DNA of 30,224 bases from a virus. Its lineage: Duplodnaviria; Caudoviricetes. The stretch spans positions 1 through 30,224 of the IMG/VR virus record IMGVR_UViG_3300031972_000039; one strand, 5' to 3'. Positions within the stretch are counted from its first letter, which is position 1. Every line of letters begins with the position of its first letter. The translations under genes were made by a program, and so were the position numbers. Below, piece after piece: positions 2,963-19,673 of this stretch. Under the pieces are notes generated by a model, which was given only the letters and a program-made list of their open reading frames with translations, was not told the origin of the DNA and did no database searches.

Positions 2963-5098
2963 ATGGCTACAGAAAACGAACAAGGTGAACTATTTGAGAC
3001 AGACGAAGTATCTGTCATCCAAGAAACAGACGATCTAGATGCACAAGGTGTTGTCGCTTTCGTTACCTCTAAGTTTAGCAGAGCAGAAGACGCTAGGTTT
3101 GCAGATGAGAATAGGTGGCTACGTGCCTATAGAAACTATCGTGGTTTGTACAATACAGACGTACAGTTTACTGAAACTGAAAAGTCTCGTGTATTTATTA
3201 AGGTTACTAAAACTAAAACACTAGCTGCCTACGGTCAGATTGTAGATGTTTTATTTGGTAGCTCTCGTTTCCCCCTTACAGTCAATCCTACAACACTACC
3301 AGAAGGTGTAGCTGAGTCTATGCACATCAGCATTAACCCTCAGACTGAACAAGCACAAGATCAGTTAGAGGATGCCTTTGGTAAAAAACCCCCAGTTACA
3401 TTACTGTTTGATCCTGACGAAAAACTAAAACCTGGCGAAACTATGTATGATCGTATGAAGCGCATGGGTCCAATAGAGGACACACTAGAGTATGCTTCAG
3501 ATAAGATAATAGAGGGTCCAGGCACAACACAAGACACAGTTACTTTCCATCCTGCTATGATTGCAGCTAAGAAGATGGAAAAGAAAATACATGATCAGTT
3601 AGAAGAAAGTGGCGCTAATAAACAACTGCGCCACACTTCGTTTGAGATGGCGTTGTTTGGCACAGGGATTATGAAAGGTCCGTTTGCTATAGACAAAGAG
3701 TATTCTAACTGGAATGAAGACGGTGAGTATGACCCAACAATAAAGACTGTACCATCTACAAGTCACGTATCTATTTGGAACTTCTATCCTGATCCAGATG
3801 CGTACAACATGGATGAAGCAGAGTATGTAGTAGAGCGACATCGTATGACACGCTCACAAATGCGTGGCTTAAAGTCTAGACCTTTCTTCAGAGAAGAATC
3901 TATTAACGAAGCAATAGACTTAGGCGAGTCCTACGAAAAGAAATACTGGGAACAAGACATGGAGGACGATGCACAGTATAGCAACGCTCCATACAGATAT
4001 GAAGTCCTAGAGTTTTGGGGCTATGTAGACACATCTATACTAGAAGATCACGGTGTTGTAATACCAAAAGATTTAAAAGACTCAGAGCAGTTAAGTGTAA
4101 ACGCTTGGGTGTGTAACGGCAAAGTATTACGTTTAGTTCTTAACCCATTTAAGCCAGCACGTATACCTTACTACGCTGTACCGTATGAGCTAAACCCATA
4201 CTCATTCTTTGGTGTAGGTATTGCAGAAAACATGGACGATACGCAAACTTTGATGAATGGTTTCATGCGTATGGCTATTGACAATGCTGCACTATCTGGT
4301 AATCTTATAATTGAAGTAGATGAAACTAACTTAGTTCCAGGTCAAGACCTGAGTGTGTATCCTGGCAAAGTGTTCCGTAGACAGGGCGGTGCTCCTGGTC
4401 AAGGTATCTTTGGCACTAAGTTTCCAAACGTTGCTGCAGAAAACATGCAGCTATTTGATAAGGCAAGGGTATTAGCAGATGAATCAACTGGCTTTCCATC
4501 TTTCGCTCATGGTCAAACAGGCATACAGGGTGTGGGCCGTACTGCTAGTGGTATTTCCATGCTTATGTCTGCTGCCAACGGTAGTATACGGAATGTAGTT
4601 AAGAACGTAGATGACTATCTTATTGCACCTATGGGCAAAGCATTCTTTGCATTTAACATGCAGTTTGACTACGATGAAGGTATCAAAGGTGATCTAGAAG
4701 TAAAGGCACAAGGTACAGAAAGTCTAATGGCTAACGAGGTACGCTCTCAGCGCCTCATGCAGTTCTTAGGTGTAGCTTCTAATCCTATGCTACAGCCGTT
4801 TGTAAAGTCAGATTACATCATTCGTGAGATAGCTAAGAGCATGGACTTAGATCCTGATAAAGTAACTAACTCACTTGGTGACGCAGCTATACAAGCTGAG
4901 ATACTCAAGAAGTTTGCTGCACCACCAGAACCACCTGAAGGGATAGCTCCACTTGAAACACCTGAACAAGAAGGGCAGCAACCTGCTCCAACACCACCAG
5001 CAGGTACAGGAGTACAAGATACTACAGGTGCAGGTGGAGGAACCATAGGCACAGGTACAGTTCCAACGCCAGGTGAGCAAGGGTTCACAGGTACATGA
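2963..5098 (+). CDS. Portal protein
   Basis: 711 aa directly after TerL; motifs LFGTGIMKG, WNFYPDP, YEVLEFWG, FFGVGIAE, RTASGISML; Pro/Gly/Thr-rich tail. Confidence 0.92.
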   Translation: MATENEQGELFETDEVSVIQETDDLDAQGVVAFVTSKFSRAEDARFADENRWLRAYRNYRGLYNTDVQFTETEKSRVFIKVTKTKTLAAYGQIVDVLFGSSRFPLTVNPTTLPEGVAESMHISINPQTEQAQDQLEDAFGKKPPVTLLFDPDEKLKPGETMYDRMKRMGPIEDTLEYASDKIIEGPGTTQDTVTFHPAMIAAKKMEKKIHDQLEESGANKQLRHTSFEMALFGTGIMKGPFAIDKEYSNWNEDGEYDPTIKTVPSTSHVSIWNFYPDPDAYNMDEAEYVVERHRMTRSQMRGLKSRPFFREESINEAIDLGESYEKKYWEQDMEDDAQYSNAPYRYEVLEFWGYVDTSILEDHGVVIPKDLKDSEQLSVNAWVCNGKVLRLVLNPFKPARIPYYAVPYELNPYSFFGVGIAENMDDTQTLMNGFMRMAIDNAALSGNLIIEVDETNLVPGQDLSVYPGKVFRRQGGAPGQGIFGTKFPNVAAENMQLFDKARVLADESTGFPSFAHGQTGIQGVGRTASGISMLMSAANGSIRNVVKNVDDYLIAPMGKAFFAFNMQFDYDEGIKGDLEVKAQGTESLMANEVRSQRLMQFLGVASNPMLQPFVKSDYIIREIAKSMDLDPDKVTNSLGDAAIQAEILKKFAAPPEPPEGIAPLETPEQEGQQPAPTPPAGTGVQDTTGAGGGTIGTGTVPTPGEQGFTGT

Positions 5099-5289
5099 TA
5101 GTAAAAAAGCTAGTAAACGACAAGCCTCTATGGGATGGGTTTGTTGATGTACTTAATGAAAAGATAGAGGTAGCACAGCGTAAACTAGAACAGGAGACAT
5201 CTATAGAAGGTGTGTATCGTGCTCAAGGTGAGATAGCTGCTCTAAGAAGATTGACATTTTTAAGGGATGAAATAAATGGCAGAGACTGA
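5095..5289 (+). CDS. Small hypothetical protein following the portal
   Basis: ATGA overlap with the portal stop; helical protein with a YRAQGEIxALRRL motif, a type often found after podovirus portals. Confidence 0.8.
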   Translation: MIVKKLVNDKPLWDGFVDVLNEKIEVAQRKLEQETSIEGVYRAQGEIAALRRLTFLRDEINGRD

Positions 5290-6521: not shown

Positions 6522-6545
6522 GGCTACCCAGCTACGGCTGGCCCC
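6522..6545 (+). promoter_or_regulatory. Hairpin with C(UACG)G tetraloop and CUAC/CC internal loop, immediately 5' of the scaffold RBS
   Basis: GG-CTAC-CCAGC-TACG-GCTGG-CC-CC, followed by AAGGAG at 6551-6556 and ATG at 6564. Confidence 0.7.
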
Positions 6546-6563
6546 AACATAAGGAGAAACTAA

Positions 6564-7445
6564 ATGCCAGAACTAACAGAAGTGGAAACACCAAAGAATG
6601 CAGGATTTGTACAAAACAAGTCAACCCTCACAGCTAATAGAAAACGAATAGAGCAGGATGAGGCAGAACTTAAAGCCCTCATGGAGGGAAGAACAGAAAG
6701 TCCTACCGAAGAAGAAAGTACCGAAAAGAAAGAGGCCGATACAGAAGCTAAAGAAGAAACGCTATCTGCTGAAGAAAGAACGTATAAGAAACGGTACAGC
6801 GATTTACGCAAGCACTTAAACAAACAGTCTGAAGAAATAAAAGAACTAAAAGCTCAGATGGAAAATGCTGCTAAAGGCGATATACGTCCACCTAAATCAG
6901 ATGAAGAGATAGATGCGTGGGCTAAAAAGTATCCAGAGATAGCAAGCATTGTAGAAACAAAAGCTGCTAAGATAGCTGAAGAAAAGTTTGCAAAGGCAGA
7001 CAAGAGGCTGCAAGAGATAGATCAACTTAATGCAGAAACCCAACGCACTAAATCAGAAAATGCTATAAGAAAAATACACCCTGACTTTGATGAGTTACGT
7101 GAAAGCGATGACTTTCATAACTGGGCAGGGGAGCAACCCAAGTGGGTACAAGACGCTCTGTACGAAAATCAAGACGATCCAAGATCAGTTGTACGTGTTA
7201 TTGACCTGTTTAAGGTTGACAACGGCATGGACATCAAGTCTAAAAAAAGAACAACTAAAGAAGCAGCATCACAAGTCAAGACAAAAAGAACAACTAAGAT
7301 TGACGGTGAAGGTGTATCAGGACAGATTCTAGAGTCACAAGTACAGAAAATGTCTGCTAAAGAATACGAAGCAAGGTCAGACGATATCATGGAAGCTATA
7401 CGATCAGGTAAGTTTGTATATGATATTTCTGGTGGTGCACGATAA
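6564..7445 (+). CDS. Capsid scaffolding protein
   Basis: Acidic, highly charged coiled-coil protein (YKKRYSDLRKH, HPDFDEL, MSAKEYE...I..AIRSGK) directly upstream of the capsid gene; strong RBS. Confidence 0.85.
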   Translation: MPELTEVETPKNAGFVQNKSTLTANRKRIEQDEAELKALMEGRTESPTEEESTEKKEADTEAKEETLSAEERTYKKRYSDLRKHLNKQSEEIKELKAQMENAAKGDIRPPKSDEEIDAWAKKYPEIASIVETKAAKIAEEKFAKADKRLQEIDQLNAETQRTKSENAIRKIHPDFDELRESDDFHNWAGEQPKWVQDALYENQDDPRSVVRVIDLFKVDNGMDIKSKKRTTKEAASQVKTKRTTKIDGEGVSGQILESQVQKMSAKEYEARSDDIMEAIRSGKFVYDISGGAR

Positions 7446-7452
7446 AAAACTA

Positions 7453-7480
7453 TTGACATAGTAGATTAAGTATATATAAC
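7453..7480 (+). promoter_or_regulatory. Sigma70-type promoter for the capsid operon
   Basis: Perfect TTGACA at 7453-7458, 16-nt spacer, TATAAC at 7475-7480, with an A-tract just upstream. Confidence 0.7.
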
Positions 7481-7490
7481 TATGTTTATG

Positions 7491-7665
7491 AAGTAAAAGC
7501 ATAAAGCCCTATTATTAGCTACCTTTGTGCTTTTCTTAACTAAGCCCAACTACTAAGTAAGACCTACCTAGTTAAGTATAGGCCCGATGCTGTACACAAA
7601 GGCCAAAGTGTATGGTACTCGCACCCTAGAACTACTAGCCTCTTTCAAAGTGTTAGCTTACTAAC
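7491..7665 (+). ncRNA. Structured 5' leader RNA of the major capsid gene (putative cis-regulatory element)
   Basis: Hand folding gives hairpin 7491-7537 and a long stem 7559-7644 (extendable to 7541-7660), with three C(U)AC/CC internal loops, an AGUA/GAA loop and several G-U pairs. Confidence 0.72.
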
Positions 7666-7696
7666 TTAAGCCAAACATCTAATGGAGGATTTTATC

Positions 7697-8770
7697 ATGG
7701 CTTTTTCATCAGCGTCAGGTTACGGCAATTTACCTAATGGTAATTTTAGCCCAGTAATCTACTCCAAACAGGTACAGCTTGCTTTCCGCAAGAGTACTGT
7801 TGTAGGAGAAATAACTAACTCCGATTATTTCGGAGAGATAAGCGCACAGGGGGATACGGTTCAGATTATCAAAGAACCTGAAATCTCAGTGCAAGCTTAT
7901 ACTCGTGGCACAACTGTCACAGCACAAGATTTAGACGATGAGGACTTTCAGTTAACTATTGACAAAGCGAACTACTTTGCTTTTAAGATGGATGACATTG
8001 AGGAAGCCCACTCACACGTTAACTTTATGCAACTTGCAACAGATCGTGCAGCATATCGTCTAAAAGATCAGTATGATCAAGACGTACTTGGATACCTTTG
8101 TGGTTTCAAACAGTCGGCACTACATGGATCACCAGATACAGCTAACACAACCGTAAATGGTTCTAAGTCTGTTATCACTGCTGGTTCAGACGAACTTCTT
8201 TCTTCAATGAAGTTAAAGAAGGGTGACTTCGGTAACATCACAACTTCAAGTGCAGGGGAACATTCTATCCCACTAACTGCACGTATGCCAGGTGCAACCT
8301 CACTACCAACAGCAACAGCTTCACCAGCAATGGTTGTAGCTCGTATGGCTCGTTTGCTAGATCAACAACAAGTTGATACAGATGGCAGATGGCTGGTTGT
8401 TGACCCCGTGTTCATGGAACTCTTGCGCGATGAAGACTCACGCTTAATGAACTCTGACTACGGTGAGGCTGGTGGTCTTCGCAACGGTCTTGTTGTAAAC
8501 AACTTTCACGGCTTCCGTATGTACGTGTCCTCAAACCTACCTGCAGTAGGAACAGGGCCAGGCACATCTGGATCAGCAAACCAAAACGCAAATTTTGGTG
8601 TGATCGTTGGTGGACATGACTCAGCAGTAGCAACTGCAGAGCAGATCAACAAAACAGAATCATATCGTGACCCTGACAGCTTTGCTGACATTGTTCGTGG
8701 TATGCACCTATATGGTAGAAAGATTCTTCGTCCAGAAGGTCTTGTAACAGCTAAGTATAACGCAGCGTAA
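7697..8770 (+). CDS. Major capsid protein (HK97 fold)
   Basis: About 357 aa. N-terminus MAFSSASGYGNLPNGNFSPVIYSK, motifs GDTVQI and GRWLVVDP, C-terminal FADIVRGMHLYGRKILRPE. GGAGG at 7684-7688 favours ATG 7697 over 7682. Confidence 0.95.
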   Translation: MAFSSASGYGNLPNGNFSPVIYSKQVQLAFRKSTVVGEITNSDYFGEISAQGDTVQIIKEPEISVQAYTRGTTVTAQDLDDEDFQLTIDKANYFAFKMDDIEEAHSHVNFMQLATDRAAYRLKDQYDQDVLGYLCGFKQSALHGSPDTANTTVNGSKSVITAGSDELLSSMKLKKGDFGNITTSSAGEHSIPLTARMPGATSLPTATASPAMVVARMARLLDQQQVDTDGRWLVVDPVFMELLRDEDSRLMNSDYGEAGGLRNGLVVNNFHGFRMYVSSNLPAVGTGPGTSGSANQNANFGVIVGGHDSAVATAEQINKTESYRDPDSFADIVRGMHLYGRKILRPEGLVTAKYNAA

Positions 8771-8786
8771 GAAGGGAGACTGAACA

Positions 8787-9323
8787 ATGGCTACTATTTC
8801 AATGAGCACGAACTCAGCCTCTACTTCCAACAATGGCGGTACTGGCAATAAGCAGCTTCGTGGCAGCTTAGTTACTCTGCAGAACGACATCGATCTTGCA
8901 GATGCTATATTACAAAACGGTGGTACTGCACTAGCAGCCAATGATATCATTGAGGCTATTGCTGTTCCTGCAAACACTTTGATCCTACATGCAGGTTTCA
9001 AAGTTCAAACTGCAATGGAAGGTACTACTACAGACTCTGCGATCCACGTTGGTATCACAGGAACAGACGTAGACATTTTTGCTGCGTCATTTGACCTAGA
9101 CGGTGCATCAGCAGGTGCTCACACTCCTGCTATTACATCTTCAGGTGTATGTTCCAACTTACCAGTGTTCACTGCATCAGCAGACACTATTGACGTAGAG
9201 ATTCATGCGTCAAGTGGAACTATCACTGGCGGTATTATCCGTGTATACGCTGTATGCGTAATCATGGATGATGTCTCAGGATCAAGTTCTGCTAATGAGG
9301 TAGATCGTGATCTACTAGCATAA
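8787..9323 (+). CDS. Putative capsid decoration or minor capsid protein
   Basis: Beta-rich 178-aa protein right after the MCP and before the hairpin; GGGAG RBS. Confidence 0.65.
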   Translation: MATISMSTNSASTSNNGGTGNKQLRGSLVTLQNDIDLADAILQNGGTALAANDIIEAIAVPANTLILHAGFKVQTAMEGTTTDSAIHVGITGTDVDIFAASFDLDGASAGAHTPAITSSGVCSNLPVFTASADTIDVEIHASSGTITGGIIRVYAVCVIMDDVSGSSSANEVDRDLLA

Positions 9324-9329
9324 TACTTT

Positions 9330-9356
9330 GGGGGCTGGGCAACTGGCCCCCTTATC
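9330..9356 (+). terminator. GC-rich hairpin, probably a leaky terminator or mRNA 3' stabiliser after the head genes
   Basis: GGGGGCTGG-GCAA-CTGGCCCCC with a GNRA loop and two G-U pairs, followed by only TTAT. Confidence 0.75.
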
Positions 9357-18809: not shown

Positions 18810-19673
18810 ATGTTAAAAGATTTATCAAAAACTTACAACGAGGATCAGACACAACTGGTCACACAAGACATAGACATTCAGCTACCAATGTCAAAGCCTG
18901 AATACAAATCTATGTTGGCTAACATAAAAGATCATGCTCCTGCTATACGACAGGCATCAAGTAACTTCTACAAGTCTCACTCACAGATGATGAGTGTAAC
19001 ACTGGACGTTACAGCTATCACACCTATACGTTCTATCAAGCACAGTCTAGCTGAGATAGAAAAAACTAAAGCTGCACTACAAGAGTCTTACTTTAAAATG
19101 AAGAAGGACGAAGTAAAACTAAAGAAGCTAGAACGTAAGCTACTAGATGAGACTGATCCACTAGAGCAAGAGATGTTAGAGATTAAGATAACAGAGAAGC
19201 AAGCTCAAGCTGCAAGCTCTCGTGGTTATGTTGAAGGTGCAGTACGTAAGCTAAACTTCTTTACGAACCAGTACGATAACCTAATGGAGAAGATAGGTAA
19301 AGAAGAACTAACAGAAGAAGACTACGAGCTAGAAGAAATTAAGTACCACATTATGACCTGCATGAAGCAAGCACTCAACAGTGCAAGACCACGTAACGGT
19401 GTCATTGATGAAGGTAACATGATTTACTTGTTTGACTTAGGTATCAATGCAGCACAGGCACAGGCTGAAGTGTTTTCGTATCTTAACTGGGAAAACGAAC
19501 TAGTAAAAGATGGTAAAGCACCAGAGCATTACCACACAGTGCAGTGGCTAGAAGCTTGTGCAGATAAGTGGGCGCACTGCCCAGGTGACTTTGCTAACAG
19601 TCGTGGATTTAACATACTAGATAAAACATCTTTAACAAACACACCACAGTTAGAGGATAAGACAGATGGCTGA
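18810..19673 (+). CDS. Hypothetical coiled-coil protein
   Basis: 287-aa ORF with AAGGA RBS; central charged heptad-rich region. Confidence 0.8.
   Translation: MLKDLSKTYNEDQTQLVTQDIDIQLPMSKPEYKSMLANIKDHAPAIRQASSNFYKSHSQMMSVTLDVTAITPIRSIKHSLAEIEKTKAALQESYFKMKKDEVKLKKLERKLLDETDPLEQEMLEIKITEKQAQAASSRGYVEGAVRKLNFFTNQYDNLMEKIGKEELTEEDYELEEIKYHIMTCMKQALNSARPRNGVIDEGNMIYLFDLGINAAQAQAEVFSYLNWENELVKDGKAPEHYHTVQWLEACADKWAHCPGDFANSRGFNILDKTSLTNTPQLEDKTDG

Follow-up and report, generated by a model that had tools for sequence, protein, structure and literature searches.

A recurrent asymmetric RNA loop in the scaffold and capsid leaders of HMO-2011-type phages: a candidate cis-regulatory module of head genes

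What could a small asymmetric RNA loop be doing if it occurs four times in front of two neighbouring phage head genes? The question is raised by a 30,224-base virus record, which is the window analysed here over its full length and in which the terminase, portal, 408-aa, 293-aa and major capsid genes all lie on the + strand. An earlier note, made by hand folding, had located four copies of one loop in the leaders of the 293-aa and capsid genes and proposed that they form a regulatory circuit of head assembly. By its capsid sequence the phage is a marine one of the HMO-2011 type: the 357-aa major capsid protein (7697..8770, +; phrog_267, E 2.3e-65) is 76-78% identical to those of the type phages (77.6% vs Roseobacter phage CRP-9, 75.6% vs HMO-2011).

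The gene next to it (6564..7445, +) encodes the 293-aa protein, which matches phrog_13678/479, of unknown function, and has homologues in 27 phage records, including CRP phages, pelagiphages, rhizobial phages, CHOED and Aeromonas phages. Its structural model (mean pLDDT 74.5, pTM 0.35) consists almost entirely of helix, including long helices and, at the C-terminus, a helix-turn-helix. Neither a fold match nor a sequence match was found in the PDB. Weak look-alikes in BFVD are annotated 'capsid assembly protein' (E 6.3e-4) and 'scaffolding protein' (E 1.9e-3), and in the nearest named Atlas cluster (score 0.93) 13% of the members carry PF09306. From its position beside the capsid gene, the predicted fold and these weak look-alikes, we infer that this is the scaffold gene, and its putative scaffolding protein is referred to below as the scaffold.

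Several other features of the window were noted. A very basic 82-aa protein is encoded at 491-739 (phrog_14910, of unknown function) and is a possible alternative RNA binder. A small ORF of ~61 aa (MIVKKLVNDK...) at 5095-5279, between the portal and 408-aa genes, lies under the ORF cut-off, and a similarly sized gene is present there in relatives. The gene at 8787-9323 is followed by a GC-rich hairpin with a GCAA cap and a short U run (9330-9355), which may end the capsid transcript and is absent from the terminator-scan output. The contig starts with a long AT-rich imperfect inverted repeat (1-104), and the gene at 18810-19673 has a weak Pfam match to LcrV (E 3.7e-4, under the curated cut-off) that is probably due to chance.

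Four loops in two leaders

Each of the four hand-folded loops was confirmed, and the module that they share can be defined as N1-3-AC opposite CC. Module 1 is a hairpin of the scaffold leader (6522..6545, +), supported by folding, covariation and the tree, in which the long strand comes first and G-CUAC-C faces G-CC-C (GCTACC 6523-6528 / GCCC 6541-6544). Its UACG cap is not conserved in homologues. As had been claimed, a gap of 5 nt (AACAU) separates the end of this hairpin at 6545 from the Shine-Dalgarno (SD) sequence of the scaffold gene, AAGGAG (6551..6556, +), and in homologues the hairpin mostly ends 1-9 nt before the SD. The remaining loops lie in the capsid leader. Module 2 (7495..7534, +; folding and tree) contains the loop in flipped orientation, G-CC-C before G-CUAC-C (GCCC 7506-7509 / GCTACC 7518-7523), and has a 12-bp outer stem. 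Module 3 (A-CCUAC-C / G-CC-U; ACCTACC 7562-7568 / GCCT 7638-7641) belongs to a long stem (7559..7644, +; covariation and folding), within which module 4 (7579..7628, +; covariation and strict scan) pairs around GCCC 7582-7585 and GCACC 7621-7625 (G-CC-C / G-CAC-C) and carries a variable inner stem.

Thermodynamic folding recovers the loops to different degrees. The local minimum-energy (MFE) fold includes loop 1, whose 2-bp outer helix the centroid lacks (z -0.63); loop 2 is found in the MFE fold as well as the centroid (z -3.8). Folding 7555-7650 by itself yields loops 3 and 4 (z -1.33), and loop 4 is also present in the local minimum-energy fold. When the whole leader is folded, the outer helix of loop 3 is replaced in the MFE by a pairing of CCUCU (7639-7643) with GGAGG (7684-7688), and loop 3 is therefore one of two alternative folds.

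A descriptor requiring 3-5 nt ending in AC opposite CC, helices on both sides and a fold near the local MFE recovered all four loops (4/4). None of 6,919 dinucleotide shuffles of both leaders gave four, the maximum being three (6 times). Furthermore, both strands of the 30 kb window together yielded 3 matches in a strict scan, all within the scaffold and capsid leaders; among 137 shuffles of the whole window, 2 had 3 strict matches anywhere. Because the descriptor was derived from these same loops, the homologue data described below are a stronger test than shuffles.

The capsid leader is predicted to be ~210 nt long and to start after a Sigma70-like promoter, TTGACA-16-TATAAC (7453..7480, +), which is found in its exact form in 67 of 132 capsid leaders and in a loose form in 115 of them; 7453-7480 was not among the output of a consensus promoter scan. 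Strand A (7541..7550, +) is predicted from covariation, duplex energies and forced folds to pair with strand B, closing modules 3 and 4 in an ON fold. Strand B (7650-7660) and strand C (7667-7678) are predicted by folding to form an OFF-fold hairpin (7650..7678, +). CCUCU (7639..7643, +), which comprises the short strand of module 3 and its outer helix, is the predicted anti-SD according to folding and to pairing in homologues, and the capsid SD itself, GGAGG (7684..7688, +), was recognised by sequence. A terminator scan found none between the leader and the capsid gene.

Two further motifs occupy the long stem. Between loops 3 and 4, AGUA (7575-7578) stands opposite GAA (7629-7631) (7575..7631, +), an arrangement between two helices that we take to be the sarcin-ricin / loop E (bulged-G) type consensus; it occurs in 36 of 51 leaders of the window's clade, 0 of 45 leaders of three other clades and 3 of 10 unassigned leaders. 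In three dimensions that motif is characterised by an S-turn backbone and a base triple. The inner stem of module 4 is capped by an apical loop (7598..7607, +) with the palindrome GGCC (7601-7604), a candidate self-kissing loop in light of palindrome counts and the tree. A 4-nt palindrome was present in 24 of 31 distinct, structure-anchored apical loops of this stem vs 11.0 expected, with 15 switches among 7 types on the tree, and controls were at chance (module 2 loops, 8/53 vs 10.3; scaffold hairpin loops, 14/56 vs 13.4). The long inner stem is missing from 32 of 106 capsid leaders.

Rearrangements of the leaders were also observed. A comparison of capsid leaders L053, L055 and L078 with L066, L076 and L068 shows a near-identical long inner stem with a UGAUCA loop in phages whose flanks differ, as well as near-identical leaders that differ solely in this stem, which suggests that the inner stem is swapped as a block. 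In MW202701 (L086:2315-2884), an HNH endonuclease gene is inserted between the capsid promoter and module 3, and the 3/4 stem is kept; a location of this gene inside the variable stem was rejected, as the gene is upstream of module 3 with its 3' end abutting it. Some capsid or scaffold leaders (L135 and L137, L130, L161) contain insertions of tRNA-like or repeated 'CACTAGTGGCGTAGTTCA'-type segments.

Conservation in relatives and a second phage family

Homologous leaders were collected from 240 viral loci obtained with three capsid queries, plus one more, and 14 named phages; removal of duplicates and truncated loci left 118 scaffold leaders and 132 capsid leaders. The module was detected in 104 of the 118 scaffold leaders, vs 1.7% among 590 shuffles; on the reverse strand it was detected in 1 of 118. 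Capsid leaders contained it in 128 of 132 cases, with a mean of 2.6 each vs 0.14 in shuffles (reverse strand, 10/132). The module signal is strand-specific and lies on the sense strand. Since the leaders are related, these counts overstate their independence, and covariation is the stronger test.

Among 24 scaffold hairpins selected by hand for diversity, 95.5% of the cells pair, and 27 cells show double changes vs 6.4 in shuffles, none of 500 being as high. For 47 capsid leaders of the window's clade (2 of 49 were left out for long insertions, and the window took the place of a near twin), 86.6% pair, with 43 double changes vs 14.8 (0/500 shuffles), and no more than 48.8% are paired when slid. 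When the scaffold hairpin is anchored by sequence only, its third inner pair can form in 70 of 76 cases vs 49% across phages. Furthermore, a count of coincident double changes on the capsid tree gives minima of 8, 5, 5 and 11 for the first four inner pairs of this hairpin, likewise sequence-anchored; for modules 2-4 the tree counts depend on structural anchors and are partly circular. Some modules were misplaced by the regex anchoring, and ~20 module 2 rows flagged as poor were counted all the same. In homologous leaders the loop bases are near invariant while the surrounding stems change. These compensatory changes across the scaffold and capsid leaders bear out the proposal that structure, and not duplication, is kept. 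RNAalifold applied to a sequence-only MAFFT alignment of the 47 capsid leaders gave just 3 invariant pairs and no covariation; the pairs join GGC 7581-7583 with GCC 7638-7640, in a register that differs from the module folds and is a possible alternative register.

Searches of the window and 40 related loci returned 0 Rfam 15 matches at gathering score, in keeping with the earlier note, which could not assign the module to a named RNA family. By E-value there were only sub-threshold matches, and a weak match to freshwater-2 was rejected as it covers mostly the RBS. What stands of the regulatory circuit put forward in the earlier note is a set of conserved, covarying loops in both leaders with no Rfam match, while the binding of a protein to them is something we infer. 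Contigs of near relatives in four marine metatranscriptome runs span both leaders; they carry no strand or start and may include DNA, and they are not counted in favour of the module.

In some relatives the scaffold gene carries more than one copy. HMO-2011, CRP-1, CRP-3 and phiM6 have two nested copies in the scaffold leader. In pelagiphage-type and CHOED-type phages, where ~20-70 nt separate the scaffold and capsid genes, the module is at the scaffold gene, and 17 of 31 pelagiphage-type scaffold genes, vs 0 of 112 others, have a third module at +15 to +47. A blind pattern scan (GGCTACCC-N5-30-GGCCCC) over 2 of 64 parts of the viral collection yielded 121 loci, 44 of which had a scaffold homologue, and in 8 of 21 loci inspected the match was inside the scaffold frame. 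Extra in-frame copies within the scaffold coding sequence are present in two clades. An in-frame module at ~codons 35-50, encoding A-T...A-P and varying in its inner stem, was seen in L278, L285, L304, L306, L312, L359, L363 and L372. When 34 fresh loci from genome contigs were considered, the module was present in 12 of 15 scaffold-homologue leaders vs 2 of 12 leaders of non-homologous upstream genes. Variants were noted as well: the first of the pelagiphage-type hairpins in the scaffold leaders of L092 and L180-L254 combines a CUAC/CA loop with an (A)UCAC that is conserved close to its apex, and one subclade (L039, L040, L057, L063, L065 and L069) is without a recognisable scaffold-leader module, its capsid-leader modules being kept with a short inner stem.

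The claim that the module is confined to scaffold and capsid leaders held up in the genomes scanned, where no further recurrent target was seen. Away from the leaders, strict scans found nothing above background in the window, HMO-2011, CRP-3 or CRP-9, and they also missed the variant loops of HMO-2011 itself. With model R1, scaffold leaders were the best matches, that of CHOED was missed and that of HMO-2011 ranked under a chance match. The CC-type module is absent from D6E, phiSASD1, ZP6 and P22 gene 8, the last of which is preceded by a 13-nt gap and has no module in 420 nt around its start. In Slicky01 the scaffold motifs are retained, and no module was found; none of the scaffold residues separating it from module carriers was convincing.

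One blind-scan match (L286) led to a second phage family (L385-L418), with a capsid of phrog_3437 and an upstream gene of phrog_3742. A related module was detected in 17 of 34 of its capsid leaders vs 3% of shuffles and no reverse strands. These modules are nested GG-CC-C / GG-ACAC-C or ACAAC-C. None was found in the leaders of the upstream gene, and 20 loci scanned gave no Rfam match. The capsid proteins of both families match phrog_267, and comparison of the second family's upstream protein with the 293-aa scaffold revealed no detectable homology (probability 2%).

A predicted switch and its candidate ligands

In the MFE of the window, CCUCU pairs with the capsid SD on top of the B:C hairpin. 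Forcing module 3 to form brings in A:B and raises SD access, scored at 7685-7689, only from 0.08 to 0.51 (forcing cost 3-5.5 kcal/mol), or from 0.16 to 0.37 with 15 coding bases included. Of 50 diverse leaders, 24 had their SD opened by a forced module 3; in the other 26 it did not open, and in 3 of these it closed. Forcing module 2 opened it in 4 and module 4 in 2. An anti-SD run lies in or just after module 3 in 27 of 50 leaders vs 12.4 expected, and the short strand of module 3 is the main partner of the capsid SD in 45 of 97. Cognate A:B duplexes have a mean of -9.1 kcal/mol vs -7.6, -6.3 and -6.9 in controls, foreign pairings being weaker. However, in these models an SD tends to be freed whenever any pyrimidine-rich strand is forced into a helix, which counts against the switch. 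In-silico swaps of the module 3 outer strands had little effect (9 up, 3 down of 24; 6 up, 5 down of 26), the 3' strand of module 3 is not more conserved than its partner (43 vs 41 of 47), and in the second family the SD test could be anchored in 14 of 34 leaders, many out of register. We regard as tentative, and somewhat doubtful, the predicted anti-SD switch in which CCUCU of loop 3 pairs with the capsid SD unless loop 3 forms.

At the scaffold gene, forcing module 1 did not close the SD, access going from 0.61 to 0.69 (26 up, 7 down of 60). Because the forced module leaves this SD open, any repression of scaffold synthesis would have to be steric, and both genes could be activated by binding.

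The loop is a candidate protein-binding site, and quite probably one on the pattern of its sequences, because its bases are fixed in both orientations and in unrelated stems, beside starts and inside frames. The module would thus be a docking site. A protein bound 1-9 nt before the scaffold SD, and in some clades also at +15 to +47 or deeper within the coding sequence, would block ribosome loading, and a protein on module 3 would keep CCUCU within its own stem, move strand B from C to A and free GGAGG. If unassembled scaffold is the ligand, scaffold synthesis would go down and capsid synthesis possibly up. Placement and sign logic make free scaffold the most likely candidate, plausible if not quite probable, since a surplus of scaffold relative to coat should be answered by making less of the former and more of the latter, and co-assembly would take the signal away. 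That free scaffold binds the module, represses scaffold synthesis and may activate that of the capsid is likewise a reading to which we give slightly less than even odds. A more elaborate picture, in which the capsid leader is a scaffold-sensing two-state switch, the one module turns the scaffold gene down and, via the anti-SD in loop 3, the capsid gene up, kissing palindromes pair capsid mRNAs, and RNA-held scaffold meets new coat and nucleates the prohead, seems distinctly unlikely.

Counting against a scaffold ligand is the second family, which combines the module and a capsid matching phrog_267 with a scaffold that is not detectably homologous. This would suit unassembled coat as the ligand, exerting autogenous control of whichever leader heads its transcription unit, which we consider rather unlikely. 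That leader would be its own or, where the scaffold and coat genes are closely coupled, the one of the scaffold gene, in line with modules only before the capsid gene in the second family and at the scaffold gene in the short-gap pelagiphage- and CHOED-type phages. However, distant capsid homologues without this scaffold are mostly without the module (2/12 upstream leaders; none in P22, D6E and ZP6), a comparison in which distance is a confounder, positive feedback would result from the predicted opening of the capsid SD, and module copies within the scaffold coding sequence point to scaffold control. The sharing of the module by two families with unrelated scaffolds could also be explained by a host RNA-binding protein, or another phage protein, that binds it and raises both head genes late in infection. 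The signs at the two genes may indeed agree, as a forced module raises SD access slightly in the scaffold leader and more in the capsid leader. We judge such an activator unlikely: the hosts of module phages span SAR11, SAR116, Roseobacter, rhizobia, Vibrio and Aeromonas, and there is no recurrent copy at other late genes in the scanned genomes, so that ratio control fits better than a general late activator.

The loops could instead be architectural C-loop-type elements setting helix twist, with the capsid leader dimerising via its palindrome or serving as a prohead-RNA-like assembly platform. The excess of palindromic apical loops with their switches, and the AGUA/GAA motif in the same stem, would be in keeping with this, and C-loops are described as architectural in PMC4551918. 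Still, this reading is improbable in view of the leaders without a long inner stem, of single short hairpins in scaffold leaders and coding sequence that have no partner to orient, of the conserved CC, which is unexpected for bulged C-loop bases, and of the lack of a terminator separating the leader from the capsid gene. It is very improbable that the stems serve just for stability or processing of the late mRNA, or as DNA hairpins, the loop being non-regulatory: near invariant loop bases in changing stems, the strand-specific signal and the copies kept within coding frames speak against it, although the capsid leader does begin right after the promoter with a long 5' stem. Overall, the module is real and apparently an undescribed cis-regulatory RNA; with free scaffold as the ligand, it would be a form of autogenous phage head-gene control.

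Comparison with known systems

PMC4551918 and PMC9516175 describe the C-loop as an asymmetric internal loop in a hairpin whose longer strand mostly starts with C (JAR3D group IL_73276.5), and report a viroid C-loop as a protein-binding site. In three dimensions a C-loop is built on two base triads, made by two non-Watson-Crick pairs that cross. The module is likewise an asymmetric internal loop within a hairpin stem, and its longer strand starts with C in 129 of 131 scaffold-leader loops and 250 of 334 capsid-leader loops of the 15 commonest types. Loop 4 (CAC/CC) has the size described there for C-loops, a three-base long strand with 0-2 bulged bases opposite, whereas loops 1-3 have a long strand of 4-5 nt. 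In the module as a whole, the fixed bases of the long strand are the last two (AC) and the short strand is a conserved CC. The available part of PMC12510878 contains nothing on phages. Closer in genomic position are the GP20-a and GP20-b Rfam motifs and the csRNAs that Fremin et al. 2023 (PMC10690425) describe in phages upstream of GP20 or capsid genes. Like these csRNAs, the module is a candidate cis-regulatory structure directly upstream of phage structural genes with support from covariation. In the tables of that paper that were searched, the single candidate upstream of P22_CoatProtein comes from gut samples (PMC10690425); it is possible that the RNA studied here was catalogued earlier, without annotation, among its 8,495 candidates, for example upstream of a domain-less scaffold gene. 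Unlike the GP20 motifs, the module has no Rfam match in the window or the related loci scanned. Searches of open-access full texts listed no description of this RNA.

HIV-1 DIS and phi29 prohead RNA are kissing-loop dimerising RNAs. The capsid leader resembles them, on sequence grounds, in a self-complementary apical loop that varies among palindromes and is a candidate kissing loop; it differs in that the palindrome has 4 nt only, is absent in about one third of leaders and lies in an mRNA leader.

The leaders of thrS and of ribosomal-protein genes are autogenous translational operators. The T4 gp32 leader is given as another in PMC10690425. By analogy, the mechanism proposed here would place a protein on a structured leader near the SD to control its own synthesis. 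In contrast with those operators, one module is used in both orientations and at two genes, with up to four copies per gene and predicted opposite effects.

The closest parallel is phage P22, whose scaffolding protein is reportedly subject to post-transcriptional autoregulation by unassembled scaffold; autoregulation of its gene is the subject of 1985 papers by Casjens and Adams and by Wyckoff and Casjens, cited in PMC5529062. The literature searched offered no defined RNA site for scaffold-to-coat matching in tailed phages. This matching of supply has genetic precedent in P22, and the module offers a candidate site of ~25 nt. It is found in the cultured phages HMO-2011, CRP-1, CRP-3, CRP-9, HTVC115P, phiM6 and CHOED, of an abundant marine group, and the related module in a second family suggests wider use. 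If the proposed reading is true, the scaffolding protein would be a sequence-specific RNA-binding regulator, and one motif would have opposite outputs at two genes. As in P22, a podophage scaffold gene stands beside a P22-coat-like capsid gene and would be controlled post-transcriptionally by unassembled scaffold; unlike P22 gene 8, the phages described here carry a defined RNA module that is repeated and also precedes the capsid gene, where it is predicted to act as an activating switch.
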